Shown one piece after another: positions 27,603 to 58,235 of a stretch of DNA of 64,000 bases (positions are counted from its first letter, which is position 1; each line of letters begins with the position of its first letter). Under the pieces are notes generated by a model, which ran no database searches, was not told the origin of the DNA, and worked only from the letters and a program-made list of their open reading frames with translations. The position numbers were made by a program, and so were the translations under genes. This DNA is from Firmicutes bacterium ADurb.Bin193. Lineage in GTDB: Bacteria; Bacillota; Clostridia; Monoglobales; Firm-18. The stretch lies in the NCBI GenBank assembly GCA_002070105.1, contig MWCQ01000003.1, forward strand, positions 143,101 through 207,100, written 5' to 3'.

Positions 27603-28925
27603 ATGAAGACAGCTTCCGAGCTTTGGGAAGACGCATTGCCTTACATTAAAAAAAATGTTTCTTCAACAGGTTTTGCAACAGCTTTTACTAAGGTGCGTCC
27701 ATCGGACATTACAAAAAATACCTTTGTGCTCTCCGTAAACCATGATATTTACAGGGACATGCTTGAGATGTACCGCGATATTATTGTTGATGCCGTTGCC
27801 ATTGCAAACGGTTCTGCTATGGAACTTGAAATCATAACCGAGGATGAAGAAGCGAAAAAAGAAAAGGAAAAGGTCTCCGCTATCAGAGGAGAGAGCGTTT
27901 TAAACCCCAAATTCACCTTTGAAAACTTTATAGTCGGAAAAAACAACGAATTTGCCTGCGCTGCCGCCTACAACATTACCGCAGGTCCGGTCAGCGATTC
28001 ATACAACCCTCTTTTGATATACGGAGGAAGCGGTCTTGGAAAGACACATCTTCTTCACGCCGTGGGGAATGCGATTTTAGAGAAAAATCCCGTTGCAAAT
28101 GTTATGTATGTAACCTCCGAAAAGTTTATGAACAGCTTTATTGAATCCATCAGGAATGAAACGAGCAAGGCTTTTCGCGAAAAATTCCGCACGATTGATG
28201 TTCTTCTACTTGATGATATTCAGTTTTTTGCGGGAAAGGACGGGACTCAGGAGGCATTTTTCCACACCTTTAACGAGCTTGTAGGCAACAACAAACAAAT
28301 TATGATGACATCCGACCGACCGCCGAAGGATATTTATCCTCTTGAAGAAAGGCTTCGCACACGGTTGTCCGGAGGGCTTATGGCCGACATCAAGCCGCCA
28401 GATTATGAGACGCGCATAGCCATACTTCAGTCAAAGGTAAAAAGCGCAAAGGTTTCCATTCCCGATGAAATTTTTGATCTTGTGGCACAGCAGGTTAAAA
28501 GCAATATTCGTGAGCTTGAGGGTGCAATACGCACTATCGTGGCCTACAGCGAAATCAGCAAGAAGGATATAGAGCTTGACACCGCAAACAGGATTTTAAA
28601 TGATTATTTTTCATCGTCACACAAGAGGAAAATTGACGCGGACTACATAATAAAGCAGGTTGAAAACTATTTCAACTTAAAAGATGACGAGATTAAAAGC
28701 AACAAGCGGGACAAGGAATATACATATCCGCGCCAGATTGCAATGTATATATGCAGAGAGCTTACCCAGCTTTCCCTGCCGGAAATCGGCAAGGAGTTCG
28801 GCGGGCGCGATCATTCCACGGTCATGCATTCAATAAAGAAAATTAAAAGCATTATGCAAAAGGATCTTGATTCAATGAGAACGATAAACGACCTTATAAA
28901 AAATATAAAGAGCAGCGAGGGCTGA
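27603..28925 (+). CDS. dnaA: chromosomal replication initiator DnaA
   Basis: 440 aa. AAA+ Walker A (GGSGLGKTHLLHA), LLLDDIQF, and a domain IV helix (RQIAMYICRELTQLSLPEIGKEFGGRDHSTVMH). Confidence 0.98.
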   Translation: MKTASELWEDALPYIKKNVSSTGFATAFTKVRPSDITKNTFVLSVNHDIYRDMLEMYRDIIVDAVAIANGSAMELEIITEDEEAKKEKEKVSAIRGESVLNPKFTFENFIVGKNNEFACAAAYNITAGPVSDSYNPLLIYGGSGLGKTHLLHAVGNAILEKNPVANVMYVTSEKFMNSFIESIRNETSKAFREKFRTIDVLLLDDIQFFAGKDGTQEAFFHTFNELVGNNKQIMMTSDRPPKDIYPLEERLRTRLSGGLMADIKPPDYETRIAILQSKVKSAKVSIPDEIFDLVAQQVKSNIRELEGAIRTIVAYSEISKKDIELDTANRILNDYFSSSHKRKIDADYIIKQVENYFNLKDDEIKSNKRDKEYTYPRQIAMYICRELTQLSLPEIGKEFGGRDHSTVMHSIKKIKSIMQKDLDSMRTINDLIKNIKSSEG

Positions 28926-41443: not shown

Positions 41444-41549
41444 AATGAAAACTGTTTCGGGTCGCCACCAGGATTTGCCCGCTTGCGCGGCTCGCGCTTT
41501 TTGCTTCGCAAAAAGTCGCAGGACAAGTTCAAATCCTTGAATGTATAAA

Positions 41550-41590
41550 CCAAAAGAAAGTCCCCACCGTCGGCGAGGACTTTCTTTTGG
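41550..41590 (-). terminator. strong hairpin / terminator
   Basis: Perfect 14-bp stem CCAAAAGAAAGTCC/GGACTTTCTTTTGG with a 13-nt loop. T-rich tail on the minus strand. Confidence 0.6.
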
Positions 41591-41612
41591 CAAAGATGGT
41601 CAGCTTTAATAC

Positions 41613-41647
41613 AAATGCACCCATTACAAAGATGGGTGCATTTTTTT
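41613..41647. terminator. terminator hairpin at the island edge
   Basis: AAATGCACCCAT-TACAAAG-ATGGGTGCATTT followed by T7. The right arm is partly duplicated at 41649-41661. Confidence 0.65.
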
Positions 41648-41920: not shown

Positions 41921-44086
41921 TTACTCACTAATTGTTGCTATTCTATTTTCCTCATCCCAACTAACAGTAAAGCCAAGCTCTTCCGACAAAAAACGCAACG
42001 GCACCATTGTTTTGCTGTCGATAAGGCGAGCGGGAACATCCATCTGTTTTATCTGACCGTTAACCCTTGCATTTGTATCATTAATAGAAAACATAATGCT
42101 ATTATTTGAGCCTTTCACCAATGCTCTTTGTGTCTCTCCATCCCAATCCACTTCCGCGCCTAATGTTTCAAATATAAAGCGTAGCGGCACAAGTGTTCGG
42201 TCATTTTCAATAACCGGTGGTGTATCAAACCCGAGAATCTTATCGCCAACCCTTACATATGTCGGGTTTTCAATATTTATTGCATTTCTAATCTCATTAA
42301 TGTCAAAAGTGATATACCATCCGGATTGATTGTATATAATTTTATCACCCAAAATGTAAAACATTTTATCAGTACCGTTATACATAGTATTGGCTAAAAA
42401 AGCAAAATCACCTTGTATGGGTATTTCAACAAAATACACGCCATCGTTAGAAAATCCGAATGATAAATTTCCATTGCTGTCAACCGTTCGCTTTACATAC
42501 ATATCGCCAATAACTTGTATGTTTGGTATCGTAGTTTTAGTTTCATATGCTATTTCAGCAAAATTTAAATTGTTCACTTCATACATGACGCGGGTTACAT
42601 CGGTTTGTGATATATATGTTTGAAGTCCTGTATATTCACGCTCTGTTAATATTGTGCTCTTTCCATTGCTCTTCGGTGCTTCGATAAGATTTTTCTCTAA
42701 TGACCAATCCTTAAAGTTTCTGGAGGAATATACACCAGCAAAAGCCACTTTATTAGCGACACTTCCAAGACGCACATAATATGTCTCATTTGAAAATGCT
42801 AAATCCATTATATCTCCATCAAAGGTATGTTCATCAACAAGATTTAACAATTCATCATAAAGCCAAATTTTATTACCGCCGTATTCAGCAGTCACAAGAT
42901 AATGCTTTCCTGTCCACTGTATTTTGTAAGCGTATCTTTCCCAAAATGCTTGGTAATTCTCAGCCGTTATTCCCGAATCGTAAAAATGCACCTTGTCCGT
43001 TGTCATTTCGATAATTCCCGTTTCAAGGTTTCTTCGTATATATTCTTTACCAGTCCAGTACAAGTTTTCAACAAAAGGCTCTTGATGTATATTTTGTGCA
43101 ATGCCGTCATTTTCTAACCAGTTGCCAGTTTCTGCGTCGTACCAGCAAATAGCCCCTTTACTAAAATCAACTATTTTGTCGTTTACCAATAAAGCTACAC
43201 CTACATAGCCTTTAGAAGGCAAAGTCATACGCTCAAAATTAATGCCATCATTCGAGGCGTATGCGTTATAATTTATAAAATAGTAGAATTTACCACCCGC
43301 ATGAAGTAAAGTTGCATCCTTATCCGCACCCGATATGTCAACTATAGTTTTTGACCAGTTCCCATTTTCCAAGGAATCGATTACATAACGAACCAATGTG
43401 TTTCTTTCGTAAAAATATAGTATATATTCCCCATTGCTGTATGTAAACAGTAATCGCTTACGGGTAGTATCCTCCTCGTTGTTCAGCAGCGGCATAATAT
43501 TCCAAGTTTTCATATCCTGTGACCATAGTATGTTTTTTGTTCTCCCAAGCGCAAAATAAATATCATTCAAAACATATATTTGAGGTGCAAACGCATTGAT
43601 AAGGCTTACACCCTCGGGGTTGATTGCAATTTCCTCAAAATCATTAAAATCAGATGTTAAGCCAACAGTCACACTTACCATAGGAAGTGTGCCCTCCTCA
43701 TTCCTTACCAGATATTTACCGTTTATAAAAGCGAAATCATTCCCTGCCGAATATTTGCATGACTGCCCAGTCCAATTGTATCCGTCATATGAACGATAAA
43801 CATTGTAATTGCTGATAAAAACAAATTGACTTCCATCCCATAATATTTTATTTATGTCCGAATAACACACATTAGAAACTTCGGTCCAATTTGTCAAATC
43901 CTCAGATACGGCAATAAAACCTTTTTCCCCAACCGCTACATATATAATGCCGTTATATGCGCAGTCAAATACAGCGGAGGCAGACTCCCTCGCTATGGTA
44001 TAACTAAGATCTCCCGTAAAAGCATGCACAGAAGTGCAGGCAAAATATACCCCGATAATTAACCACGTGATTATTAACTTTTTCAT
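41921..44086 (-). CDS. P5: secreted repeat (beta-propeller-like) protein with two C-terminal copper-amine-oxidase-N-like domains
   Basis: ATG 44086 (MKKLIITWLIIGVYFACTSVHA signal peptide) lies 7 nt after GGAGGAG. The body is Trp/Tyr/Asn-rich and repetitive. The C-terminus has NDRTLVPLRFIFETLGAEVDWD and DSKTMVPLRFLSEELGFTVSWD. Confidence 0.85.
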   Translation of the reverse strand: MKKLIITWLIIGVYFACTSVHAFTGDLSYTIARESASAVFDCAYNGIIYVAVGEKGFIAVSEDLTNWTEVSNVCYSDINKILWDGSQFVFISNYNVYRSYDGYNWTGQSCKYSAGNDFAFINGKYLVRNEEGTLPMVSVTVGLTSDFNDFEEIAINPEGVSLINAFAPQIYVLNDIYFALGRTKNILWSQDMKTWNIMPLLNNEEDTTRKRLLFTYSNGEYILYFYERNTLVRYVIDSLENGNWSKTIVDISGADKDATLLHAGGKFYYFINYNAYASNDGINFERMTLPSKGYVGVALLVNDKIVDFSKGAICWYDAETGNWLENDGIAQNIHQEPFVENLYWTGKEYIRRNLETGIIEMTTDKVHFYDSGITAENYQAFWERYAYKIQWTGKHYLVTAEYGGNKIWLYDELLNLVDEHTFDGDIMDLAFSNETYYVRLGSVANKVAFAGVYSSRNFKDWSLEKNLIEAPKSNGKSTILTEREYTGLQTYISQTDVTRVMYEVNNLNFAEIAYETKTTIPNIQVIGDMYVKRTVDSNGNLSFGFSNDGVYFVEIPIQGDFAFLANTMYNGTDKMFYILGDKIIYNQSGWYITFDINEIRNAINIENPTYVRVGDKILGFDTPPVIENDRTLVPLRFIFETLGAEVDWDGETQRALVKGSNNSIMFSINDTNARVNGQIKQMDVPARLIDSKTMVPLRFLSEELGFTVSWDEENRIATISE

Positions 44087-44102
44087 ATCTATCTCCTCCA
44101 AC

Positions 44103-46088
44103 TTAATAAACTACAATGGAATTTTCCATTCCACCGGCGTTGCCTGTGGGTAGGATAATATCTACAATTATTCCTACGCCATTATATCCTCCAACTCCTT
44201 CGGCAGAAGTAAAAAAGAACGTATCCAATACCTTTGAGGAATTTTCACCCTTATACATAGCAATATAGTTTCCTTCAGGGTCACTTGGGTTTCTAAGGAC
44301 TATTACATTATTTGAACTCGTTTCTAAATTGAAATTAATAAAACGTTGGTATTCGCTATAATTATAAACCTCGTAATTGTACCTTGTGATCACCCCATAA
44401 TTAGCTAGGTTGGAAGAATCAAAGACATTACTGCTTCCGTTATAAAATCCTTGAGCTGGATTGTATATAAGATTGGGTCGCGGCAGAACAAAATTCGGGT
44501 CACTGGTTGAACTACGATAATTCGGATACCGAAATGTATCGCTATGGAATACATCAAACTTCCACGTGCCATCTTTTGCCCCGCTAAATGAATTTCCATA
44601 TGCCTCATATTTTGTAGGATCATTATACCTAAATTTTAAAATATCAGATTGCGCTCCATGATCAGCATAATACCTGTCATTTTGAGGGTTAATTTGAGTT
44701 TTCCACCAATCAACCTTCACACCACCACGTTCAAACTCGTTAAATACGATAACAGGCAATCTTGAATTATAAGAATTATCATCATTAAATGCCATAATCA
44801 GCCTTGTTTCAACCAATGGTAAAGTGTTCGCAATCCCCTTATATTGATAATCCTTATAATATGGTGCTTTGACATTCGGGTCTTCTCCCGCTCTATAATC
44901 ACTAAAACGATTGCTTAATCCGCCTCCATTATCTTTTACTGCAGCAATGTTAACCTCTATACCTTTTGAATTTACTATTTTGAATTTTAGTACCATGTAC
45001 ATAACATGTGCGTTTGGTACAGAGGTATACACTCCGCTGGTAAACACATCCCCCGCCCAAAGTGAAGCATTTTCCGAAAAGTTATGTATATATTTTGTGG
45101 TTGAGTTTTTGGTGCGCAAAACAGGTTGTGGAGTGTAGGGATTGTTTATTGTCAAATCATAAATTGTCATTTTGCTATAATTTGCATACGCTTGAATGCA
45201 AGCATAACTCATGGGTTCGCCAGAATACGGGTCCACTTTTCCTGTAGGTATATAAAATGCCGCTGATTCTATCTCGATTGTTGCTGTACCATACGGATCA
45301 TAGAATTGTACATCCACGTAAATTGGGAAACTATTATCATAGTAAATATCAGACCCATCTTGCAAATCTATTCCCATAGATGTATTGTTGTTATGAGAAA
45401 CCATCATCTCGTATTCCCCATTACCCAGGCCTTTTTCATGCATGAGCAATCTTGGACCGTAAGGGTTATTGCCATCTGCTAAATCTGCTCTTGTTATCCC
45501 CTCTCTGTTATTGCAATAAATGTACTTGCCACCACCAGCTTCTTGAAAAAACAATGGAGTCGCTTGCCCTTGATACAATCCGTCAACACGCATAGCAATT
45601 GGATTTAAGCAAACATAATCATAGTTGCTGTTTATTGCCCAATAAGCACATGCGAAGTCTGTTCCGTTTGGAGCTTTTACCTTATAATCAATAATAAGAA
45701 CATCTCCGTTCTGACCTTTTGCAGCAACGGTTACAGGATCACACCACTGGAAGTATGTAGTTTGCAATTCCCCAATACTATCATATTCTCCCCATAGAAC
45801 AAGAGGTTCAAAGGTAATGGTTGAGGAGGTTTTGTTTTTGAAGAATACCTTTACATTGTTAGTCCCGTATTTCAACACACCACCTGTGTTCTTTCCGTCG
45901 TGTGTCACCTGATAATTCATATCAATTTGATCGAGTCCGCCTAAACCCGCTGTCACAATATTCAAACCTTCTACTTCTGCTTGATATGTATCTCTTTTTT
46001 CTTGGTACGTCTCGGTGATAGATTCGTCAATATCAATTGACTCACTGTCTGATGTTACCTCAGTTGCATCATCCTTTTCTTCATCCAA
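44103..46088 (-). CDS. P4: large Asn/Tyr/Gly-rich protein of unknown function, no signal peptide seen
   Basis: 661-aa ORF. The only start upstream of residue 57 is TTG 46088, which has no RBS and overlaps the P3 stop by 8 nt. Acidic N-terminus. No motif recognised. Confidence 0.75.
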   Translation of the reverse strand: MDEEKDDATEVTSDSESIDIDESITETYQEKRDTYQAEVEGLNIVTAGLGGLDQIDMNYQVTHDGKNTGGVLKYGTNNVKVFFKNKTSSTITFEPLVLWGEYDSIGELQTTYFQWCDPVTVAAKGQNGDVLIIDYKVKAPNGTDFACAYWAINSNYDYVCLNPIAMRVDGLYQGQATPLFFQEAGGGKYIYCNNREGITRADLADGNNPYGPRLLMHEKGLGNGEYEMMVSHNNNTSMGIDLQDGSDIYYDNSFPIYVDVQFYDPYGTATIEIESAAFYIPTGKVDPYSGEPMSYACIQAYANYSKMTIYDLTINNPYTPQPVLRTKNSTTKYIHNFSENASLWAGDVFTSGVYTSVPNAHVMYMVLKFKIVNSKGIEVNIAAVKDNGGGLSNRFSDYRAGEDPNVKAPYYKDYQYKGIANTLPLVETRLIMAFNDDNSYNSRLPVIVFNEFERGGVKVDWWKTQINPQNDRYYADHGAQSDILKFRYNDPTKYEAYGNSFSGAKDGTWKFDVFHSDTFRYPNYRSSTSDPNFVLPRPNLIYNPAQGFYNGSSNVFDSSNLANYGVITRYNYEVYNYSEYQRFINFNLETSSNNVIVLRNPSDPEGNYIAMYKGENSSKVLDTFFFTSAEGVGGYNGVGIIVDIILPTGNAGGMENSIVVY

Positions 46089-47388
46089 ATCGCCGCTTGG
46101 AAATGATAAGGGTACTTATACCCGAAGTAGTAACGCTGTAAGATGTAGATAACGGAATATGACTGCTGTTGTAAACACTGGAACCCTGCCAAATAAAGAT
46201 TTTAAGCGTATGCCCGTTCACATTGGATGGTAATTGCATTTCAGTATGCTGTACCTGTTGCTGGTTTGGTGCGTATACATATCCCATCCCGCATGAACGG
46301 ACGATTTCTCCGCTCGAATTGTAAAGAATGAAATCCACAAATATTTCCTGAGAATTTGTAGAGTCGTTGTTTTTAATCGTGAAATCTGCACCAAACGTAG
46401 CGTTAGCCGCCAAATTATTACGGCTGAATGTACTTGATACAGTAGCGGCCGGTGGAATATTCTCGGCAACTGTAGCTTCGATTTTATTAATGATTGCTTC
46501 GCTTCCAAATGTACCGCAAACAGGAATTCTGCTATCTGCTTGGTTGATAACATACTGATAACCTTTATCGGAAAGTGGCAGGGTCAAGCTGTACGAGAAA
46601 GTTCCACCTGATGCCGTGTTTACCTGCCCAACATTAACTAATGTTCCTACTTGGTCATAAATGGAAATGCCTACTTTTTTACTGCTTGTCGTGCCAAGTT
46701 TTCCGGAAAAGGAAACAGAATTTGTTCCGCTTGTTGTAACTTTTACTTTCTTAATATATACGCTTGCAGTACCCGTTTGACGAGCTTTAGAGCCTATTTT
46801 TATGTAATATGTCTGTCCTGAAGTCAAGGTTTGCGCTATAGTTACATCCTTTTTATATTCTAAGTTATCCTCATAAACCAATATGTTGTTATCACTGTCA
46901 AGTATTGTTCCAAAAGGTAAAATGTTTCCGGAAAGTTCAATAAAATATGTAGCTGTTTCCGTTGGCGTAAACTTATAATAAGCATAACCTCCAACATACG
47001 CAATATTGGCAGTAGCTGATGTTGTCAAAGAAAGTGCTGTTACCGTACTGTCGTCGGTTGAAACCGCAATCATAAAACTATATACGCCTATTGTTGTGCT
47101 GGTTAACTTAAGGGTGTATACTTCATTCCTTGACAAATATGCCGAGAGTTTATTTGTAGACGACATATTATTTTTAGTTGCAAATGCGATAGTTGGATTA
47201 CTGCTATGGTAAAGGCTTCCGCTCATCCCTGTCCCAGTAGGGACAGAAATTTCATAATTACCATCTTGCGGAACAGTAAAATCGTAACTGTGCAGCTGTC
47301 CGCTCGTTTGGATCGTATTATTGTATATAGTATCAAGCATAATAATATTACTGTCATAAGGCGTGGCGAAAGGCGTCAATGTGTCCAT
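46081..47388 (-). CDS. P3: protein with PPC (pre-peptidase C-terminal)-like beta-sandwich repeats, no signal peptide
   Basis: 435 aa. Repeats of the type HSYDFTVPQDGNYEISV...SLY and YYKFTPTETATYFIELSGN...ILDSDNNILVYED...GQTYYIKI. The C-terminal module ends HTLKIFIWQ. Confidence 0.75.
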   Translation of the reverse strand: MDTLTPFATPYDSNIIMLDTIYNNTIQTSGQLHSYDFTVPQDGNYEISVPTGTGMSGSLYHSSNPTIAFATKNNMSSTNKLSAYLSRNEVYTLKLTSTTIGVYSFMIAVSTDDSTVTALSLTTSATANIAYVGGYAYYKFTPTETATYFIELSGNILPFGTILDSDNNILVYEDNLEYKKDVTIAQTLTSGQTYYIKIGSKARQTGTASVYIKKVKVTTSGTNSVSFSGKLGTTSSKKVGISIYDQVGTLVNVGQVNTASGGTFSYSLTLPLSDKGYQYVINQADSRIPVCGTFGSEAIINKIEATVAENIPPAATVSSTFSRNNLAANATFGADFTIKNNDSTNSQEIFVDFILYNSSGEIVRSCGMGYVYAPNQQQVQHTEMQLPSNVNGHTLKIFIWQGSSVYNSSHIPLSTSYSVTTSGISTLIISKRRFG

Positions 47389-47394
47389 ATCATC

Positions 47395-47898
47395 CTAAAT
47401 CATAATTTTAAGCTTGTGTCCAGTAACAACCGAATCAAACTGCATATTCAGAGTGTAAGTGGAGTCGGAATTAATACTGCCTGTCCCGCTTATTGCTTCA
47501 ACCGACATTTTAACAAGTTTACCAGTGCCATCGTAAACTGCGGCAATCATCTTTGCAGGAGTCACATCGGACACTTTTTTCGTCACGATAATTTGGTAGA
47601 GTGTTCCATTTGCCGTAATATTGTTGGTAACAATACCCGCCGCATTCTTTAGAATAACAGATTTTACTGCAAAATTCGGATTTTCTATGTATGTAACCGA
47701 ATTATATAATTCTATTTCATTTCCTTCTAACGTAATTATTTCGCTTGATTCCACAACATCTTTTGAGGCATCAGCAATTTTACTTTCATTAAGCTGAATC
47801 AAAACCTCTTCGTCACTCGCAAACACGCCAATCGGCAATATTGTAGAGAATAATGTAATTCCGATAATTAAAGCCAACATTCTGTTTATATATCTCAT
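47395..47898 (-). CDS. P2: small secreted beta-rich protein
   Basis: 167 aa with a signal peptide (MLALIIGITLFSTILPIGVFA). The C-terminus, GHKLKIMI, resembles the end of P3. Confidence 0.75.
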   Translation of the reverse strand: MRYINRMLALIIGITLFSTILPIGVFASDEEVLIQLNESKIADASKDVVESSEIITLEGNEIELYNSVTYIENPNFAVKSVILKNAAGIVTNNITANGTLYQIIVTKKVSDVTPAKMIAAVYDGTGKLVKMSVEAISGTGSINSDSTYTLNMQFDSVVTGHKLKIMI

Positions 47899-47944
47899 TT
47901 ATTCTGCCCTCCATTATATATAAACTACATTTAATTTTCAAGCA

Positions 47945-48973
47945 TCACTTTTTCAATTTATCCTTGATTTTATCCCAAACATTTTCTGGTATGTTGTTGC
48001 CATTTGGCGGTATATTTGTGCTACCCTCAATTGGTTTATAAACATCATTAAAATTGGGATGTTCGACCTTTTGAGTTTCATTCGTGCCTTTTTCAAGCTC
48101 GCTATTCGGGATTTTCAAGTATATTGCAGGAAGGAAATCCTCAGGCAGCACAATTTCACCATCCGTTTTAAGGTCATAATCATCCCTCACGCCAATGGTA
48201 GTCCAGGTTATGTAGCCGTATTTAGCCAAATCCTCAACAGTGTATCCATTTGGAAAAGATGCCATAAAACCATTTTCTGTTTTTCTCGCGGGGAAATGGA
48301 GGTATGTATGAAGCGGGTCAGATGAATCAGGGAAATCACTGTGTTCGCTTGAATTTACAGTTTTGCTTTCTCCACTAGGAGCAATTTTCCCAAGCGTAAT
48401 AATATATTGAAGTATTTTCCCGCTATCATCATATGGTTTGCCATCGATAATTTTACATTTCAAAGTTGCATCTCTAAATTTCACATCAACAAATTTATTG
48501 CTGATACCAATATAATCATTTCCGGTTTTCGTATCGATAAATGTTAGAGGAGAAATGGTTTTTATAGGACTATTTATAATTACTGATGTAATTTCGTTTG
48601 TTTCTTCATTGGTTGTAACGCTGATATTTTCAACTCTGCCAACTTCTTGAGTAGAGGTTAATGCATTAACGGCCTCATCATCAGGGTATACAATTGACAA
48701 AGCGATTTTATCATCGCCATCTTTCGGCAAATAATACGCTTCCGTTATTCGTATTCCTAAATCCTTTGGGTTTATAATATCGCCGTTTTCAGTGACTATA
48801 TTGTCTAAAGATATTGATGGTGAATTTGCCCTAAAATCATCAATGATTGGAATAATAATATTTTTGAAAAATTCCATTGCATATCCTGCAGTGAATAAAC
48901 CAAATACTATAATGCCAATGAATATAGCCACAAATTTTTCAAGCTTACTTTTTTTATTCTCCTTATTTCTCAT
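47945..48973 (-). CDS. P1: N-terminally membrane-anchored extracellular protein, unknown function
   Basis: 342 aa with a Lys-rich N-terminus and one TM helix (FVAIFIGIIVFGLFTAGYA). RBS AAAGGAGG. Confidence 0.75.
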   Translation of the reverse strand: MRNKENKKSKLEKFVAIFIGIIVFGLFTAGYAMEFFKNIIIPIIDDFRANSPSISLDNIVTENGDIINPKDLGIRITEAYYLPKDGDDKIALSIVYPDDEAVNALTSTQEVGRVENISVTTNEETNEITSVIINSPIKTISPLTFIDTKTGNDYIGISNKFVDVKFRDATLKCKIIDGKPYDDSGKILQYIITLGKIAPSGESKTVNSSEHSDFPDSSDPLHTYLHFPARKTENGFMASFPNGYTVEDLAKYGYITWTTIGVRDDYDLKTDGEIVLPEDFLPAIYLKIPNSELEKGTNETQKVEHPNFNDVYKPIEGSTNIPPNGNNIPENVWDKIKDKLKK

Positions 48974-49156
48974 TTCAGAAGCCTCCTTTTAACTTCTATA
49001 TTGCTGCTTTTCCTCGGGATACAGTAGCCTAACAAGATGTAGTGTATTAACCATTACACCTATTAACACCTCCCATCTAAATATATTACACAATTAAGCA
49101 TTGACAATTTTATGGTCATATATTATAAATGTATAAAATCCTACATTATATGGATA

Positions 49157-49185
49157 ATTATAACATGAACAAATAATTAAGTCAA
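49157..49185 (-). promoter_or_regulatory. consensus promoter of the P1-P5 operon
   Basis: Minus strand TTGACT (49185-49180), 17 nt spacer, TATAAT (49162-49157). This leaves a 5' UTR of about 175 nt. Confidence 0.55.
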
Positions 49186-49234
49186 TGTTAGTCAAATTAC
49201 TGTGGTGTGCGCAAAAAGGATACCAATACAGAAA

Positions 49235-49651
49235 TCATAAATCCTTCGTCAGATGAAATGAAAAGCTTGTTATATTCTCTTTTTCAAAATGCACATCCAC
49301 TCCGGCCTCTCTTAATTTCCGAATTGTTGTTAAAAGAAAAATAGTGTTTCTGGCAAAACGGGAAATTGACTTTGTAATAATCAAATCTATTTCGCCGTTA
49401 TATGCCTTCTTAAGCATTTCATTAAGTCCGGGGCGGCTTTCGCTCAAACCTGACACACCGGTATCCGAATATACACCGCAAAACTCATAATTTGAATTTC
49501 TTAATATGTACCGGGTGTAATATTCTATTTGATTTTCCAAAGAGTTTATTTGCAAATCGTGTTTTGTGGATACCCTGACATAGGCGCAAACCCTCTTTTT
49601 CCGCCACGGAAGTTTATTATTTGCTGTTACTTGGACATTTCTTTTTTGCAT
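49235..49651 (-). pseudogene. large serine recombinase, N-terminal catalytic fragment only
   Basis: 138 aa. Contains VCAYVRVSTKHDLQINSLENQ (catalytic Ser) and ITKSISRFARNT. It diverges and stops after FEKENITS; the recombinase and zinc-ribbon domains are missing. Confidence 0.8.
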
Positions 49652-50288
49652 GACTTTTTACCTCGCAATCTATATTCCGCATAAGCTCTGTGCCATCCCG
49701 AAATATGAACAGTACCTTATCTTCGGAAATCACCTTCACAACATTTATAACTGCCTGCCACACCATGTCATCAAATTGGTCGAGCGGGTTTTGGTGTTTT
49801 TGCAGTTCCTTTAAAAACCCTGTAATCTGCAGCCTCTTGGCCGCACATTTGTTTATTTTTGAAATTACCTGTTCCTGCTGCTGTTGCAGCTTCTCATGGC
49901 GTTTTACATATTCATTATATTTTTCATCATAATCCTTTTTATCGATTATAGTCTGTGCATTGGCTGAAATAAGCCTTTCTATGAGGACATTGATCTCTTC
50001 GCATTGTTTGTCGAGTTCTTCCAGTTGCATCACATAGGCGCTGTCATCGGTTATGGCGTCTAGTATAAGGTTGTAGTTTTCGATAATCTCGTCTTTATTG
50101 TCTACGATGCTGTTGAAGGCTTCAACAAACGCCTTTTTGATTGCGTTTTCTTTTAAGGTCGGAGTTGTGCAATATTTTCTTTTCGTAAATTTATTGTTGC
50201 AGTGCCATACAAACGTTTCATACTTGCTGCCTGCATGCCACACCTTCCTTCCGTAAAAACCACCACACCCTCTTGAAACCGCGATTTC
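49617..50288 (-). pseudogene. large serine recombinase, C-terminal fragment only
   Basis: The frame is open from 50288 (..AVSRGCGGFYGRKVWHAGSKYETFVWHCNNKF). It encodes a zinc-ribbon, a coiled coil and a DUF4368-like tail (FDDMVWQAVINVVKV). The catalytic domain is absent. It overlaps the next recombinase start, as in tandem recombinase sets. Confidence 0.75.
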
Positions 50289-50484: not shown

Positions 50485-51174
50485 TTATCTATCTGTCAAA
50501 CGAACAATCTGACAATTGACCATTACCCTGTCGAGTAGTGTCTGGCAAAGGTGCTTGTCCTCTACTGCATCTATCCACGCAGATATTTCACGATTGGTAA
50601 TAAAAATTATACTTCTGGTTTCATTCAGAAATGAAATCGCTCGATAAAATGATTGCAGCTCTGCTCTGGTAGGTTCAACATAGAATACATCATCGATAAT
50701 AATTAAGTCACATTCTTTCATATAAGAAAAAGTTGTCTCTGCTTTGGTGTACGTATCTTTTTCTTCTGCTACGGATATAAATGTTTCAAAGGGAACATAG
50801 TAGGTTTTATATCCATTGTTAATAGCCCTCTCTCCAAGCTGAACCGCAAGGCTTGTTTTGCCTGTCCCGCATTTACCCAGCAAGATTATGTTTTGTTCCT
50901 CGTCAACCCACGTTAATTGGTATAGCTGTTTTATCTGCCATTTCAAACCTTTGTTTAAATTGGACTCATCAAATACTTTGTTTGGAAGCTTGCTTGCCTT
51001 TCTCATCTTTATATGTTTTTGTCTGACTCGTAGCTCCAGTTCTTTTTCTAAGACCATCTTAAGATAATCGAGATTGGATAATCTCTCATCATTTAAATCT
51101 ATGTGTCCCTTCGCAACATTCCATAGATTCAGCCTTTGAGCCAGCTCTCGGATTTCTGTTATATCAGCCATCAA
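50485..51174 (-). CDS. istB: IS21-family helper ATPase IstB
   Basis: 229 aa. Walker A LLGKCGTGKTS and Walker B LIIIDDV. Confidence 0.92.
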   Translation of the reverse strand: MMADITEIRELAQRLNLWNVAKGHIDLNDERLSNLDYLKMVLEKELELRVRQKHIKMRKASKLPNKVFDESNLNKGLKWQIKQLYQLTWVDEEQNIILLGKCGTGKTSLAVQLGERAINNGYKTYYVPFETFISVAEEKDTYTKAETTFSYMKECDLIIIDDVFYVEPTRAELQSFYRAISFLNETRSIIFITNREISAWIDAVEDKHLCQTLLDRVMVNCQIVRLTDR

Positions 51175-52630
51175 TTTCCCTCCTTATTTCTTTACATCGT
51201 GTTAAGTGGTTAAAGTACTGTTGTGTCGGCAAAAACTTTCTCGCTATGTGCTCGCCATGCTTATACATAAGATAAGCCAAAAGCTCATATGCATTACAGC
51301 GATTACTTTTTATGCAGTATTGTATCCCTTCCAGCAATTGCTCCATGGTGTAAAACTTCGTCATACGATTTAAGCGAATACAATGGGTATTAAAATATTT
51401 TGGTCGTTCCTGTTCCATCCGTTGAATAAATTCCAATGCAATTTCATGTCCTGCAAAATATTGTTTTATAAGAGCAAGCGAAACTCTGTTCTCTATATTA
51501 CTTTCTTCAGCCTTAAACAATTGGCCGGTTTCTTCTGTTGCGGGATACTTTGCCAATAATTCATTGGTTTCCGTATCATAGAACAGGATAATCTCGCCAT
51601 CATCTTCAATACGAATACGTTTATGTGCATCCATAATTCCTACATCTACCTGATACCGGTTCCCTTTATACCTAATAACTCCGCTTGTATCAAAAGATGC
51701 TACAGTGCTTGATACCTCAAAGTATGGCTTAACATGAATTAAATGCTTTTGTTCTTCCATAAACATTTCTCGGGGTATTTTCTTCGTAATGGTATGTATT
51801 CTACCGTTGCCTTCTCTATCCAACCATGCAAGAGCGGCACTGTTAAGGCTGTCAATTCCGGTATAGATTCTGCCTTCCAGAAAACTTTGCTTCACATATC
51901 CGACAACTTCTTCTATCTTCCCTTTGCTTTGGGGATCCCTCGGCCTGCATAGCGAAACGCTGTAACCTACGCGCCTCACATATTCTTCAAATTCCGGCAC
52001 AAATATGATATTTCCTAAATTTTCGCTGACGATATATACCCTATCAAGATCATATAGGATTGTCTGCGGTCTCCCTCCGAAGTATTTAAAAGCATAATTG
52101 TGGGCTTTGATAGCCTTTTTTGTTGTGAATGGATCAGGCGAAAAGTATACAAATTTCATTCTGCTGTAACTTAAAACCATACAGAAGAAATATACCCGTA
52201 CAATCCGTCCATACATATCTTTAAGTTTATATTGTCCGAAGTCCGCCTGTGCCTCATATCCCGGAGGCAACACTTCTCTTGGAGAGATTGTCCTCGTACG
52301 CTGATACCCATGCTGTTCTCTTAAGGCTTTCATGTAGCGGTAGAAGGTAGCACGTTTAACTTGCAAATCCGGAAAAGCTTCCGTTAATTTTAGATAGATG
52401 TTAGTATCTCGAATTTGTGGGCATAACTTCAATTGCTCCAATATGTACTGGCGGTAATTATCCATATGATGCCTTTCCTGCTCAGCCGCTTTTGCGTAAT
52501 CTTCTTTGCTCATGCTCCAGTACTTACAAACAGAACTGTAGGTGATTCCCAACACCTTTGAAGTTTTTGTACGTGTTAAACCAAGCTCTTTATATTCCTG
52601 AATTTTTTGGTATTGCTCAATACCGATCAT
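51164..52630 (-). CDS. istA: IS21-family transposase IstA
   Basis: 488 aa with an N-terminal HTH and a DDE integrase core (QADFG..., ILYDLDRV). Confidence 0.9.
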   Translation of the reverse strand: MIGIEQYQKIQEYKELGLTRTKTSKVLGITYSSVCKYWSMSKEDYAKAAEQERHHMDNYRQYILEQLKLCPQIRDTNIYLKLTEAFPDLQVKRATFYRYMKALREQHGYQRTRTISPREVLPPGYEAQADFGQYKLKDMYGRIVRVYFFCMVLSYSRMKFVYFSPDPFTTKKAIKAHNYAFKYFGGRPQTILYDLDRVYIVSENLGNIIFVPEFEEYVRRVGYSVSLCRPRDPQSKGKIEEVVGYVKQSFLEGRIYTGIDSLNSAALAWLDREGNGRIHTITKKIPREMFMEEQKHLIHVKPYFEVSSTVASFDTSGVIRYKGNRYQVDVGIMDAHKRIRIEDDGEIILFYDTETNELLAKYPATEETGQLFKAEESNIENRVSLALIKQYFAGHEIALEFIQRMEQERPKYFNTHCIRLNRMTKFYTMEQLLEGIQYCIKSNRCNAYELLAYLMYKHGEHIARKFLPTQQYFNHLTRCKEIRREIDG

Positions 52631-52947: not shown

Positions 52948-53880
52948 TTAAGATAAGCCTGATAAAGACCTCATAACAAGATCAACGTCTTGATTCTCAA
53001 GTTCCTGAATAATATGTATATATGTCTTTTGTGTTGTCGTAATGCTCGCGTGTCCCAAGCGTCTTGCTACACTTGCAATCGAGACACCAGCAAACAACAA
53101 AAGTGATGCATGTGTATGTCGCAAACCATGTACTGAAATAACTGGTATTTTCGCTTTCTTACAATGTCTTTCAAGGATATCGTTAACCGTTGAGTTATAA
53201 ACCTCGCGATTATTTTTTATAAAGATAGGATTATCCGCAGGAAGATTTTTTACAAGTTCTGAAAACTGAATAACCGTCTGCCAATCCATTTGGATTTTTC
53301 TTACAGATGATTTATTCTTGGTAGGCTGAAACCCTCCATTACCTTTATAATCCCAAGTTTTACTTATCGACAAAGACTGATGTGCAAAATCAAAATCCCG
53401 CGGTGTAAGTGCCAATGCTTCGGAAAACCTCATTCCGGTTTTTGCAATTAACAATATAAACCAGTCCCAATTAATCTCATCTTTTAAGTTTAACGATTTA
53501 ATTAGGGTATGAAGTTCGTACTGATTCAAGTATTTTGTCTTTTTGGGACAAGGTTGCTTTCCCTTAATGATTGCCTTTCTTGTTGGATCCCTTTCCACTA
53601 ATCCATCATCTACCGCGTCCTGAATCGCACCTTTGAGTTGATGATGAAAATCCATGGTCGTCTGTCGTTCGTGATAACGTGCGTAATCATTTAGCATTTG
53701 CTGATAAGTGATTCTGTTGAGTTCGCATAATTTCAGGTTAGGAATGAGTTTCTCGAGCCACGAATGTGTCATTAAATACTTATCCATTGTCACTTTACGA
53801 ACTGCCCCCTCCTTATACACCTTAATCCATTGAGCATAATAATCACTAAATAAATCGTCTGGTTTTGTTTTGCTTAGCAT
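52948..53880 (-). CDS. tyrosine site-specific recombinase (phage-integrase family)
   Basis: 310 aa. Contains GMRFSEALAL (Arg), HGLRHTHASLLL (HxxR) and QKTYIH (Tyr). The gene is bracketed by the hsdS inverted repeats. Confidence 0.9.
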   Translation of the reverse strand: MLSKTKPDDLFSDYYAQWIKVYKEGAVRKVTMDKYLMTHSWLEKLIPNLKLCELNRITYQQMLNDYARYHERQTTMDFHHQLKGAIQDAVDDGLVERDPTRKAIIKGKQPCPKKTKYLNQYELHTLIKSLNLKDEINWDWFILLIAKTGMRFSEALALTPRDFDFAHQSLSISKTWDYKGNGGFQPTKNKSSVRKIQMDWQTVIQFSELVKNLPADNPIFIKNNREVYNSTVNDILERHCKKAKIPVISVHGLRHTHASLLLFAGVSIASVARRLGHASITTTQKTYIHIIQELENQDVDLVMRSLSGLS

Positions 53881-54451
53881 TTTTAACCTCCTGTTTGATT
53901 ATTATTTGCTCACGCTGATGAAGGGTGATAAGATTGTCTATATATTTGAAGAAATCGCCAATTTGCTTCTGCTCCTGTGGATTACTCGGCGAGTAAACTT
54001 CAATCTGTGCTAAATCATTAGAGTTAATTGCGGGATAGCTTGTACCGGTACAATTATCCAAAACAACTTTCACGAATCCTTCGTTCTGAACAAGACAGAG
54101 TAAGAATCTTCCGTCTACGAGAGGACGCATTTGTGCGTACCCCGTTGAAAAAACATAGTGTTTATCAGGCTTTTCAAATAAATAATTGTTTTTCTGATAT
54201 GGCCTAACCGTCTGATAAAAAAGATCTCCTGTCTGAGCTAAGCGCTGCGCTCTTGATGGTGCTGTCGCTTTCGCTTCAGTTCGGTGCGAAAGCATCTCTG
54301 TGCCAACTACTGACTCCAGATCGACATACTCAAATACATCCGGCAGCTCAGCTTTTGGATTGAATAATGCCAGCTCATTTAGCTTACGCTGTTCCCAAGC
54401 AAGAGAAAAGAGCCAAGGTTTTCCTTGACTCCCTTGAAACCGATGTTTCAT
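53846..54451 (-). CDS. hsdS: half-size HsdS (single TRD)
   Basis: 201 aa. N-terminal conserved region (AWEQRKLNEL), one TRD, then EQKQIGDFFKYIDNLITLHQRE, and it ends there. The start abuts the hsdR stop and the 3' end overlaps the integrase start. Confidence 0.8.
   Translation of the reverse strand: MKHRFQGSQGKPWLFSLAWEQRKLNELALFNPKAELPDVFEYVDLESVVGTEMLSHRTEAKATAPSRAQRLAQTGDLFYQTVRPYQKNNYLFEKPDKHYVFSTGYAQMRPLVDGRFLLCLVQNEGFVKVVLDNCTGTSYPAINSNDLAQIEVYSPSNPQEQKQIGDFFKYIDNLITLHQREQIIIKQEVKNAKQNKTRRFI
53908..53932. repeat. inverted repeat arm 2 (inside the half-hsdS)
   Basis: TGCTCACGCTGATGAAGGGTGATAAG, partner of 52903-52927. Confidence 0.85.
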
Positions 54452-54452
54452 G

Positions 54453-57400
54453 TCATTGTTGATCTAGTATATCTATCTCATAACCACCATTTATTATAAA
54501 ATTTCTAAGCAACTCATCAACTTTGTTGTTAACTCTGAACATGGGAATAGAATTGCCCTCAACAGCTTCAAAATATGCTTTTGCCTTTGTCTTATCAACA
54601 GTTGCTTTCAGATTGTCAAGTCGTCCGTATTCATTGATAGTGGCATCATCCACTTTAAGGTCCATCATTTTTCTTAGCTGCTGCTCATCCAGACCAAGCG
54701 CTACAGAGAGCTTATGGATTTGATCATCCTTTGCCCGTTGCATATATTCGTTGATATAATCTCTCAATGTCTTGCCGGATTCAACACTAACATCACCCGT
54801 CTGAAGATCATGTAGGAAAATGTTTGCATATTTTTGTTCTTCCTGTGTCAATGTGGCAAAAGTTTTATGTAACTCATCTCTTGCACTTTTGACATCTTCA
54901 TCACTACCGTTTGTTAGCGCCTTTTTATACTTTTCAAAGCGGGAATTCATGTAATCGGCATCGATTTCTTCTGTGTTGATCGTGGTAAGATACCCCGCCA
55001 AGTCGTAAGGCGAATCTTCTTTCGAACCGCCCGTCCCTTCAGAAAACAGCTCTTTGTAACGCAAAGCAAGGATTTTATATTCTTTCTCATCAAGAAGCAA
55101 AACAATTTTCTTAACTTCTCCCGTTGCCTTATCAGCGAAAGAATATTCTAATTTATCCCACACAAATCCTTGGACCTTGGCAGCTTCAAGATATTCATTG
55201 AACTGCTTAAACAGCTTTGCAAACTGTTTTCGTTCCGGTATATTCTCCGGCAACTTTTCAAAGTTAAATATTCTTGACTGCTCAAACAGATTTTTTATTT
55301 GTACGAATATCGCATTCATATTTTCAAGATTTTTGTCAAGCTTTATTGCAAACATTCCAAGCGGCTTATCCCCGGAATATAGTTTTACCGCTGCATCAAT
55401 ATTACGTTCCATTGTATATGGCGCACGATAATATTTGATAGTACCAAAAGGCTTATCCGGACCAAAGAGGCGATTTGTTCTGGAAAACGCCTGAATTATA
55501 TTTTCATAGCGTATTACCTTGTCAAGATACAAAACATTAATCCATTTGGAATCATATCCGGTAAGCATTTGATCTACAACAATCAATAGGTCAATCTTTT
55601 CTTCGGGCTTATTATCAATCCTTTCATAAGGCTTTTTGTGTGCCAGTCGAGCCTGAATATCCTTTTTCATTTTTCCGTATGTAGAAATTGTAAAGGTCTG
55701 CCCATAGAGCTTATTATAATCGGAAATGATCTCAAGTAAGGCGTCTTCTTTTTCAATGCCTGTGCCATTATTATCAATGCTCGGATCAAAAAGGGCAGTT
55801 ACTTTAAGATGAGGCGCCTCTTCCTTGAACCGCTTATAATACTGCACTGCTTCTGGAATGCTGGAAGTTGCGAACAAGCCGTGGAACTTATGATTATGAC
55901 TGATAACAATCCAGTTATCAATAATATCCCGAACTACCATTTTTTGATGTTCTTCAGTGCGATACTGCCCATTATCCAGAAGAAAATCTTCAATACCTTT
56001 AACATATGTTCCGTCAGTTTGATAGTAACCGGCCATTGGCACATCATTTATGTATTTATAATAAATTTTTTTCTTTTTAGGATCTTTGAAAACTTCATCT
56101 ACCGATGAAGCCTTTGCCATACCCAAGGCAACCGCCCGTCGCATATCACTTTCCTTAAAGGTCAGAACTTTATCCGGGTCAAAACCTAATACATTCTTGT
56201 CACGAATACCGTCAGCTATGCTGTAACGGTGCAACTCGTTACCAAAAACATCTGCGGTCGTGCAACCTTTTTTCTCATTTTCAATATGAATCGGCGTTCC
56301 GGTAAAGCCAAAAAACAGCGCTTTGGGGAAGGTTTGCTTTATTACGCCCATCATCTCCCCAAAAGTAGAGCGATGGCATTCGTCAACAATAAACACAATT
56401 CGTTTTTCACAAATTAAATCAAGATCGCTTTTTTTCAATTGTCCTTCAGTATCATTTTTGATATTACTCATTTTCTGAATTGAAGTAACTATCAAAGTGT
56501 TTGCAGGATCGTTGCTTTTCAGTTTTGCAATTAAAACAGCGGTGTCTTCAGTTTCCTGAATAGAATCTGTTTCATCCGCAAAACCACGATATTCATTTGC
56601 GCTTTGTGTGCCAAGCTCTATGCGGTCAATGAGAAACACCACTTTATCGGCATCCTTTGAGTTAGCAATAAGTTGAGCGGACTTGAAGGATGTCATAGTT
56701 TTGCCTGAACCTGTTGTATGCCAGACATAGCCGCCGAGCTGATTTCCACTTTCCCACTTGTGTTTGGCAACTGTATCGGAAATCTTGTTAGCTGCGTAAT
56801 ATTGGTACGAACGCATAACTTTTAAAACACCGTCAGAATTATCTGCAACGGTATAAAAACCGATGAGCTGATGAGCCATAGGAATGGACAATAATGTATA
56901 AGCAACCATCTTCCAGTCATTTATCGGTTCATTGTTAAAATCCGCCCAATGAAAATAAAAATCTGTGTTAAATTTGCCGTCCGGTCCGGGATTGGCAAAA
57001 TATAAAGCCTCTTCAGGATTCATGGCAACAAATACTTGCACCAGTGAAAACAACCCCGTAAACACACCTTCATGAGCATACTTTTCAATCTGATTATATG
57101 CCTGCGACACAGGGATACCACTTCTTTTCAGTTCCACATGTATAAGCGGCATTCCGTTAATCAGCAGCATAAAGTCGCCTCGTCTATCAGGCAGAATACT
57201 TGACTTGGCCGTAAATTTTGGTTGCCTTGCAATCTGATAACGGCTTTGTCCAGCGGCAATTTCCTGCCGGTCATAGATTTTTAAGCTGACCTCCTTGCCA
57301 AAATGGGCTTTATCGTCCGGATTGTCACGAATAATTGATACGGTTTTGCCGTTGATAAATCCATTGAGTTTTAGCGGAGTTTTAAGTACTTCAATCTGTG

Positions 57401-57608
57401 TAAGTATCTGCCGCATTTCTCCTTCTGTCAGTGGGTAATCATTCAGACGGTCAATGCTACGGTTGTTCTCAAAAAGAATATTGGCCCAGTTTTGCAATAA
57501 CTCTTTTTCAGTTTTGTATTCCAAAACCTCAGGCTCCCATCCGCAGGAATCCGTCAGCAATTTTATGAGCGCATCTTCAAATTCGGATTCTTTTGTAAAT
57601 GCCATCAT
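54453..57608 (-). CDS. hsdR: Type I restriction enzyme R subunit
   Basis: 1051 aa. N-terminal PD-(D/E)xK region (DFMLLINGMPLIHVELK) and SF2 helicase motifs (HTTGSGKTMTSF, FIVDECHRS, TGTPI, QAFSRTNR). Confidence 0.95.
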   Translation of the reverse strand: MMAFTKESEFEDALIKLLTDSCGWEPEVLEYKTEKELLQNWANILFENNRSIDRLNDYPLTEGEMRQILTQIEVLKTPLKLNGFINGKTVSIIRDNPDDKAHFGKEVSLKIYDRQEIAAGQSRYQIARQPKFTAKSSILPDRRGDFMLLINGMPLIHVELKRSGIPVSQAYNQIEKYAHEGVFTGLFSLVQVFVAMNPEEALYFANPGPDGKFNTDFYFHWADFNNEPINDWKMVAYTLLSIPMAHQLIGFYTVADNSDGVLKVMRSYQYYAANKISDTVAKHKWESGNQLGGYVWHTTGSGKTMTSFKSAQLIANSKDADKVVFLIDRIELGTQSANEYRGFADETDSIQETEDTAVLIAKLKSNDPANTLIVTSIQKMSNIKNDTEGQLKKSDLDLICEKRIVFIVDECHRSTFGEMMGVIKQTFPKALFFGFTGTPIHIENEKKGCTTADVFGNELHRYSIADGIRDKNVLGFDPDKVLTFKESDMRRAVALGMAKASSVDEVFKDPKKKKIYYKYINDVPMAGYYQTDGTYVKGIEDFLLDNGQYRTEEHQKMVVRDIIDNWIVISHNHKFHGLFATSSIPEAVQYYKRFKEEAPHLKVTALFDPSIDNNGTGIEKEDALLEIISDYNKLYGQTFTISTYGKMKKDIQARLAHKKPYERIDNKPEEKIDLLIVVDQMLTGYDSKWINVLYLDKVIRYENIIQAFSRTNRLFGPDKPFGTIKYYRAPYTMERNIDAAVKLYSGDKPLGMFAIKLDKNLENMNAIFVQIKNLFEQSRIFNFEKLPENIPERKQFAKLFKQFNEYLEAAKVQGFVWDKLEYSFADKATGEVKKIVLLLDEKEYKILALRYKELFSEGTGGSKEDSPYDLAGYLTTINTEEIDADYMNSRFEKYKKALTNGSDEDVKSARDELHKTFATLTQEEQKYANIFLHDLQTGDVSVESGKTLRDYINEYMQRAKDDQIHKLSVALGLDEQQLRKMMDLKVDDATINEYGRLDNLKATVDKTKAKAYFEAVEGNSIPMFRVNNKVDELLRNFIINGGYEIDILDQQ

Positions 57609-57617
57609 ACCGCTCCT

Positions 57618-58235
57618 TTACTTTTCGTCTCTGATATTTTCCGTTTTATAGACATTGTATCCCTCATAATGATAGCTTGCGTCAATGCCTTTAATATAGA
57701 CCTCGCGGTCATTGATTTTATCCGTCAAGGCGGCTTTCAAAAGCACCTTGATTTCTACATCTTTAATTGGGCTGCGCTCCATTGCAAGAAGATAATCTTC
57801 CTTCTCGACCTTGCTCCAGTCAATGACCATTTTGAGTTCTTTTTTTAGAATTGCATCCAGCCAAATACGAGTACTTCTGCCGTTACCCTCACGGAAGGGA
57901 TGGGCAATATTCATTTCGACATACTTCTCGATTATTTCATCGAAAGTGGATTGCGGCATTTTTTCAATGTTATCCAGTGCCGCCTTCAGATACATCACCG
58001 GCGCAAAGCGAAAATTGCCCTTTGCAATGTTCACATCACGTATTTTCCCGGCAAAATCATAAATTTCTTCAAACAAATACCTGTGGATCATCGCAAGTCC
58101 TTCAAAGGTTCCGACCGGGAAAGTGTCCAAAAGGCCGGTTTCAAAAAGTTCCAAAGCCTTTTTTTTGCTGATTTTTTCTTCCGCACGGGCAAGTTCGGCA
58201 GGATCCGTAATACCCAGTTTATTTTCTAATGCCAT
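57618..58235 (-). CDS. fic: Fic-domain protein (class III-like, C-terminal inhibitory motif)
   Basis: 205 aa. Canonical [12 protein letters not shown] motif. The C-terminal SYHYEG fits the autoinhibitory (S/T)xxxE(G/N) motif. The gene is wedged between hsdS (17 nt gap) and hsdR (9 nt gap). Confidence 0.9.

Follow-up and report, generated by a model that had tools for sequence, protein, structure and literature searches.

Why would two proteins of extracellular appearance, encoded among genes for exported proteins, have no signal peptide? The question is raised by five consecutive minus-strand open reading frames (ORFs) at positions 41921-48973 of a 64,000-nucleotide (nt) stretch of Firmicutes bacterium ADurb.Bin193 (contig MWCQ01000003.1; the whole stretch is called the window here). 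The ORF list gives them as P1 (47945-48973), P2 (47395-47898), P3 (46081-47388), P4 (44103-46088) and P5 (41921-44101, as first listed). These positions, and the spacings of 46, 6, -8 and 1 nt, agree with the original prediction, which described a tightly packed operon of five uncharacterised surface or secreted proteins, two of them (P3 and P4) without export signals. The main result for this window is a correction: the export paradox arises from one broken gene that was read as three. The intact gene encodes a large secreted protein, which the product of P5 may hold at the cell surface.

P2, P3 and P4 are parts of one gene

P2 and P3 share a reading frame and are separated by a single TAG (47395..47397, minus strand), which is TGG (Trp) in all other assemblies and orthologues. 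The frames of P3 and P4 differ by one base, and at 46108..46109 (minus strand) the window has TT, compared with one T in every other assembly. Reverting both lesions in the window gave a single ORF of 1,264 codons (44103..47898, minus strand). The description as five independent genes, each with its own start, fails for P2, P3 and P4, which are one gene split by the TAG and a 1-nt insertion (T at 46108). The locus consists of three genes: P1, one gene for a large secreted multi-domain protein, and P5.

The unbroken form of the large gene was found in near-identical assemblies. Contig LVAX01000061.1 (L054, also designated L008), from the metagenome-assembled genome (MAG) Clostridiales bacterium Firm_18, is 99.94% identical to window positions 44148-49198, with three differences. 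It has G where the window has A at 47396, replacing the TAG by TGG (Trp); it is without the T at 46108 and shows no frameshift; and it has T where the window has G at 45168, replacing Met by Ile. L055, L056 and L057, which come from unrelated sequencing runs, carry an identical P1, have G at 47396 and are likewise without the additional T at 46108. All four independent same-species assemblies (99.9% identical) have the TGG, no extra T and one open frame, which reaches the contig end in each case (1,250, 1,249, 797 and 707 amino acids (aa) in L054, L055, L056 and L057 respectively).

Intact orthologues span four other lineages (1,266-1,334 aa). They include P0015 (1,266 aa, 73-82% identity) and are also present in L009 (1,304 aa), L058 (1,270 aa) and L059 (P0055, 1,334 aa). 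The TAG site reads KIMIWDDMD in both P0015 and the L058 orthologue. Moreover, the closest database relative of P4 (P0001, 52% identity) is one chain whose alignment covers the C-terminal half of P3 and continues through the whole of P4, while the ORF upstream of P0001 in L001 fuses a P2-like segment to the N-terminus of P3.

The export question is answered by the position of the only signal peptide found for P2-P4. It lies at the start of P2 (47818..47898, minus strand; MRYINRMLALIIGITLFSTILPIGVFA, with the predicted cleavage site before SDE), was recognised by inspection of the translation and is conserved in P0015 and L058. As had been described, inspection of P3 and P4 revealed no signal peptide; the paradox drawn from this does not stand, because both come from the interior of a protein with its signal peptide at the beginning of P2. 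If the lesions are real, P3 and P4 are non-exported remains of a gene that no longer works; otherwise, they are artefacts of the consensus sequence. Three genes are left of the "operon", and one of them is inactive in the ADurb.Bin193 assembly.

Searches of all five ORFs against Pfam, NCBIfam, PHROGs and PADLOC gave nothing except PF07833 on P5, so that P1, P2 and P4, for which the absence of a recognisable catalytic motif had been noted earlier, have no family match, and the description of the products as uncharacterised exported or surface proteins is supported. By contrast, the PPC-like repeats attributed to P3 were not recovered. No PF04151 match was found at E <= 1 in Pfam, the sub-threshold Pfam matches of P3 were FlgD_ig, GBD_T9SS_assoc, Big_13 and PA14, and a profile of P3 orthologues searched against PDB sequences had its best match, a beta-agarase module, at only E 0.07. 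According to the structure prediction described below, a PPC-type beta-sandwich is instead present at the end of P4.

The C-terminal core of the large protein

The C-terminal 487 aa of the large protein (44106..45566, minus strand) form a domain, here called the core, which is predicted to be all-beta and to end in a sandwich resembling PPC and collagen-binding domains. The core had no match in Pfam, NCBIfam, PHROGs or PADLOC. Its AlphaFold model, built from a 58-sequence alignment, reached a predicted local distance difference test score (pLDDT) of 91.9 and a predicted template modelling score (pTM) of 0.92. An earlier model from 8 sequences was poor (pLDDT 61) and its PDB search was uninformative, which the 58 sequences remedied. 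In Foldseek searches of the PDB and BFVD, the new model had no global match (template modelling (TM) score <= 0.17). The last ~95 residues matched 5sv5 (Foldseek probability 1.00, 94 columns, TM 0.52 normalised to the target, root-mean-square deviation 3.8), as well as 1nqd (0.97) and 6ov2_B (0.93). PDB sequence profile searches with the family found the amine-oxidase N-domain in the tails only. The core is thus a large domain with a confidently predicted structure and no structural or sequence relative other than for its last ~95 residues.

A word-indexed protein search with P4 returned 7 matches, and an exhaustive profile search was needed to reveal the family. Against 1.84 billion representative proteins, this search yielded 274 core carriers (clusters at 50% identity) at E <= 1e-3, 92 of them at E <= 1e-30. 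Among GTDB species representatives, 43 core loci were found, nearly all labelled as Clostridia, Clostridiales or Bacillota MAGs; they include Monoglobus, Ornithomonoglobus and Ructibacterium, and the evident sources are animal or human gut. Judged from these searches, the core appears to define a small, undescribed family of gut and digester Clostridia.

The toxin that had been proposed among the possible roles of the cluster finds no support in the fold. Foldseek comparisons of the core with CPE, iota-toxin Ib and Cry gave TM <= 0.15 and probabilities of 0.1-0.2, and the good local match to a toxin is limited to the receptor-binding sandwich of CPE. PADLOC defence models matched none of the five ORFs. 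A phage origin was rejected (no PHROG match, no tblastn match in 50,697 phage records, TM <= 0.17 in BFVD), and so was a plasmid origin, as the single "plasmid" match is a Monoglobus record with chromosomal housekeeping genes. This record (L063; NZ_OY725726.1, 1-30000, "Monoglobus pectinilyticus plasmid 2") carries rpsT, lepA, gpr, hemW, spoVT and carB, which suggests a piece of the chromosome and not a plasmid.

P5 and the pairing of core with module X

P5 encodes an exported partner protein of 721 aa (41921..44086, minus strand). The ATG at 44086, with GGAGG 8 nt upstream, is a likelier start than the one first listed, so that P5 probably begins there and is separated from the large gene by 16 nt rather than 1 nt. 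Signal peptides had been assigned to P2 and P5, and inspection for a positive n-region, a hydrophobic h-region and an A-x-A-type site suggests the same; the putative one of P5 is MKKLIITWLIIGVYFACTSVHA, with cleavage predicted before FTG. Several Asp-box-like S-x-D-G-x-x-W motifs follow in P5, then a segment here called module X (residues 337-565; 42392..43078, minus strand) and a C-terminal Cu_amine_oxidN1 or "stalk" domain (41933..42238, minus strand; PF07833, E 7.9e-38, 129.2 bits against a cut-off of 24.2). The two copper-amine-oxidase-N-like domains described earlier correspond to this one Pfam domain (residues 622-723 of the listed ORF), which consists of two repeats of ~45 aa. P5 alone had no match in the PDB, and an exact-sequence look-up of P4 and P5 found no identical entry.

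Module X connects P5 to the core family. The usual family member is a single chain composed of a signal peptide, the core, a module X of ~230 aa and either Cu_amine_oxidN1 (36/58) or SLH (12/58), two domains that alternate across the 58 family members. Module X of P5 shares homology with the part of these chains located behind the core (hhalign probability 99.1%, E 9e-19, against the cis tail; BLASTP of P5 with P0004, E 2e-27). It occurs in cis with the core at 41 loci. In proteins in which the core is C-terminal, as in the large protein studied here, module X is encoded by the immediately downstream gene in 6/6 assessable cases; six further cases are cut by contig ends and were left out of this count. 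Across the family, the core never occurs without module X and Cu_amine_oxidN1 or SLH, whether these belong to its own chain or are encoded by the adjacent gene.

The pair formed by the large gene and P5 is also found elsewhere, as the original prediction would require. A P5 orthologue lies directly 3' of the large gene in five other lineages (L001, L009, L051, L058 and L059), the lowest identities being 26% (P5) and 33% (large protein). Monoglobus, with a different large gene, holds the most distant core/module X pair (L063). In Monoglobus pectinilyticus, the core (E 1e-54) forms the end of an S8 peptidase of 3,418 aa that also contains RCC1, fn3 and Flg_new repeats, and two "stalk domain-containing" proteins (tail profile E 1e-62 to 1e-66) come next. 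Other members with a C-terminal core carry S8 together with Kelch, RCC1 or a weak M60-like domain.

Some further observations were made around the pair. The 3' ends of L054 and L055 lie within 4 nt of each other (window ~44148-44151), ~45 nt short of the stop of the large gene, and P5 was found alone on a Logan contig of 2,428 nt (P0161), which may reflect variation between strains, or a repeat where the large gene adjoins P5. In L058 (1235-1567) and L059 (1811-2155), the cassette is preceded by a divergently transcribed gene for an HTH_3 (XRE-type) regulator, possibly a dedicated one, which the window lacks.

Proposed surface tethering and alternative explanations

Taken together, we consider that the window carries a broken large gene next to a gene, P5, whose product would hold the large protein at the surface through core and module X, and we give this reading a probability of roughly 0.6. 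Fusion in some members and adjacency in others is classic evidence that two modules act jointly, here core and module X, which probably touch each other. A location of the assembly at the cell surface is indicated by the signal peptides and by the use of either Cu_amine_oxidN1 or SLH. From these sequence patterns we infer that P5 may tether or organise the large protein at the wall. In the proposed mechanism, the large protein would be exported by the Sec route, and its core would then associate with P5 through module X. By its stalk domain, P5 would hold the complex at the cell wall or oligomerise it, so that the N-terminal modules could be displayed on the surface. In this locus they would be Ig-like and PPC-like sandwiches, while elsewhere S8 subtilases, RCC1 or Kelch propellers and M60-like domains might be displayed. 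Surfaceome data on PF07833 proteins of D. reducens agree with a surface location (PMC4137172).

Several points weigh against this reading, some on the side of the lesions and some on the side of the tether. Both lesions were found in only one of five assemblies, and could accordingly be consensus errors. The orthologue on the Logan contig L001 is frameshifted as well (~1230-1260), within the P3-like region and at a site other than the window lesions, which could equally reflect repeated decay of the large gene or an assembly error. In addition, Cu_amine_oxidN1 mediates dimerisation in PaSOD (PMC10432803), and its wall binding is putative. Finally, the 487 aa of the core exceed what mere docking would seem to require, and the existence of single-chain members without any other payload suggests that the core probably also acts in its own right; it might be a binding head, a new enzyme or a lattice subunit.

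The points on the lesions lead to the explanation that the ADurb.Bin193 MAG acquired both the TAG and the extra T through errors in its consensus or assembly, and that the gene of the organism is intact. A MAG consensus can indeed mix strains. Against this, all three differences in the 5 kb that the window shares with L054 and L055 fall in the large gene, two of them disabling, and there are zero differences from L054 and L055 in the ~1.25 kb of leader and P1. Such clustering in one gene is better explained by relaxed selection after a first hit than by random error. No interruption affects the window's further long ORFs (953, 1,051 and 818 aa), which speaks against a generally error-ridden assembly. 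Moreover, Illumina consensus errors do not typically take the form of a G-to-A substitution or of an insertion into a run of two bases. We consequently regard the lesions as probably a genuine pseudogene allele, and their origin in the consensus as the less likely case.

The points on the tether lead to a second explanation, in which the core itself does the work (as a novel adhesin, lectin or enzyme degrading glycans or proteins), module X with the stalk or SLH domain is the anchor and the N-terminal arrays are accessory. This overlaps with tethering through core and module X and differs from it solely in what the core does. It would suit the members that consist of signal peptide, core, module X and anchor only, and also the conservation within the core, where E22, Y52, D316 and N402 are invariant and D85, K243, K319, K439 and several Tyr and Trp residues nearly so. 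The local fold matches of the core are binding sandwiches (the PPC/ColG collagen-binding domain, cCPE, CUB and SGBP-B), and the core co-occurs with F5_F8_type_C and fn3_5 modules. Neighbouring genes for GT2, GtrA and UDP-GlcNAc 2-epimerase point in the same direction, albeit at only ~5 related loci, and L051 adjoins teichoic-acid-type genes. However, no catalytic motif is recognisable in the core, which matches no enzyme family by sequence or fold; the 43 loci share no conserved neighbourhood beyond the partner gene; and the same core is found behind very different payloads that are themselves enzymes (e.g. S8). We consider a working core less likely than tethering of the large protein by P5.

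Programmed recoding (read-through of the TAG or its decoding as pyrrolysine, with a +1 frameshift) or a phase-variation switch, which an in-frame stop and a single-base shift bring to mind as events that recoding can bypass, was rejected as highly improbable, since neither lesion is present in any other assembly (plain TGG and an unbroken frame in the four near-identical assemblies and all orthologues) and the insertion sits in CCCTTATC, neither a long homopolymer nor a known slippery motif.

Beyond the window, we put forward only tentatively that core, module X and stalk or SLH domain might form an undescribed surface-assembly system of Monoglobus and its relatives among gut and digester Clostridia. 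The single chains would then be a wall-bound surface array or a new type of adhesin or enzyme. Giant secreted subtilases and repeat proteins might reach the surface by docking, via a paralogous C-terminal core, onto a dedicated partner with module X and stalk from the adjacent gene. The pairing rule offers a testable idea of how certain gut Clostridia, the cultured pectin degrader Monoglobus pectinilyticus among them, keep very large subtilases on their surface.

P1, promoter-like sites and leader

P1 (47945..48973, minus strand) encodes a protein of 342 aa, identical to OQB15299.1, in which inspection suggests an N-terminal hydrophobic anchor, in line with its earlier description as membrane-anchored. 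The sole P1 homologues were found in L058 (76% identity) and, limited to the C-terminal 90 aa, in L051/L052 (48%), as a remnant at contig ends. P1 was not detected by tblastn in L001, L009 or L059, and no P1-type gene is annotated upstream in L063. On this distribution, P1 appears to be lineage-restricted, confined to the closest relatives.

The promoter predicted upstream of P1 was found at 49157..49185 (minus strand). It is a sigma-70-type promoter-like site, TTGACT-17-TATAAT, read from 49185 to 49157, with TG before the -10 element and 11/12 consensus positions, and it is followed by a leader of ~177 nt. The site is identical in the near-identical assemblies L055-L057 and is not conserved in L058. 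L054 matches the window only up to 49198, at the promoter edge, and its first 60 nt are unrelated and were not found anywhere in the window, while L056 and L057 run on past 49198 into the recombinase fragment of the window; the likely causes are a structural polymorphism or chimerism at the contig end.

The leader does contain the 21-codon mini-ORF reported earlier (48989..49054, minus strand), with GGAGG ~14 nt from its ATG. A functional role was not supported: the mini-ORF and leader are unconserved in L058, the nearest P1-bearing lineage, whose leader gave no alignment with that of the window, and an Rfam scan of the leader found no riboswitch or leader RNA. The mini-ORF is probably a chance occurrence. 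A second promoter-like site, TTGAAA-17-TATAAT, is located in the spacer between P1 and the large gene (47913..47941, minus strand) and is conserved in L051 and L058; its function is doubtful because its -10 element abuts the GGAGG ribosome-binding site. Two terminator-like hairpins lie 3' of P5 on the minus strand, at 41608-41641 (-17.3 kcal/mol) and at 41547-41587 (-23.1 kcal/mol, followed by a U-rich run). Weak Rfam matches to leaders and counter-transcribed RNA (ctRNA) coincide with both hairpins (41547..41641).

Genomic surroundings

The cluster is located in a low-GC (guanine plus cytosine) stretch rich in mobile-element and defence genes, with a GC content of 0.36-0.39 compared to 0.43-0.49 in the dnaA-gyrA block (27-37 kb). 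The recombinase debris noted beside it was confirmed and includes serine-recombinase fragments. Upstream of the promoter lie a resolvase N-domain fragment of 138 aa (49235-49651), a Zn-ribbon/coiled-coil recombinase fragment (49617-50243) and an IS21 pair, IstB/IstA (50485-52630). These are followed by a tyrosine integrase (52948-53880) and by a type I restriction-modification system (HsdS-like, 201 aa; HsdR, 1,051 aa) with a Fic/DOC protein (53846-58235). Just downstream of the cluster, an ORF at 40201-41415 matches glucuronoyl esterases (GCE_fung, CE15-like, E 7.5e-32). Its listed N-terminal extension is implausibly rich in Cys and Arg, and the true start is probably further in.

The head-on orientation to replication also holds: dnaA (27603-28925; DnaA is OQB15282.1) is on the plus strand and the cluster is on the minus strand, facing a rightward fork. 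The genes dnaA-dnaN-recF-gyrB-gyrA (27.6-36.3 kb) are all on the plus strand with positive GC skew, and the region to their right is on the minus strand. From ~38.4 kb to the window end all ORFs of at least 200 aa are on the minus strand and the skew is negative, and from ~40 kb GC falls to 0.36-0.39. This switch in strand, skew and GC to the right of gyrA could be an inversion, an acquired island or a mis-join in the MAG.

Comparison with known systems

The likeness to PPC domains, the ColG collagen-binding domain and the C-terminal domain of CPE is confined to the last ~95 residues of the core, which superpose. Many family members are secreted S8 peptidases, the usual hosts of PPC. Only one fifth of the core is covered, PF04151 is not matched and the remaining ~390 residues are unmatched.

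P5 resembles exported Firmicute proteins with PF07833 in having a full-length, high-scoring PF07833 domain at the C-terminus and a signal peptide in front, and the partners in M. pectinilyticus are annotated by NCBI as "stalk domain-containing protein". It differs from them in its Asp-box-like repeats, in module X and in the obligatory pairing with a core, a combination that is undescribed.

SLH-anchored surface proteins and enzymes of Clostridia are close in architecture, since 12/58 family members carry SLH where others have Cu_amine_oxidN1. By analogy, the large, secreted, beta-rich multi-domain plan with a non-covalent hold on the wall may be shared as well. The window proteins differ in having no SLH, and their anchor would come from a separate gene product.

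The resemblance to cohesin-dockerin is one of logic only. There is no relation in sequence or fold, core and module X are mostly fused in one chain, the interaction proposed here is deduced from gene arrangement, and a dockerin has ~70 aa compared to the ~480 aa of the core. Nevertheless, as in cohesin-dockerin, diverse payloads would share a C-terminal module, and a neighbouring gene would encode the complementary module together with the anchor. If the broader surface-assembly proposal were true, core and module X would be a functional analogue of cohesin-dockerin, or of CWB2/SLH display, built from a new fold of ~480 aa.

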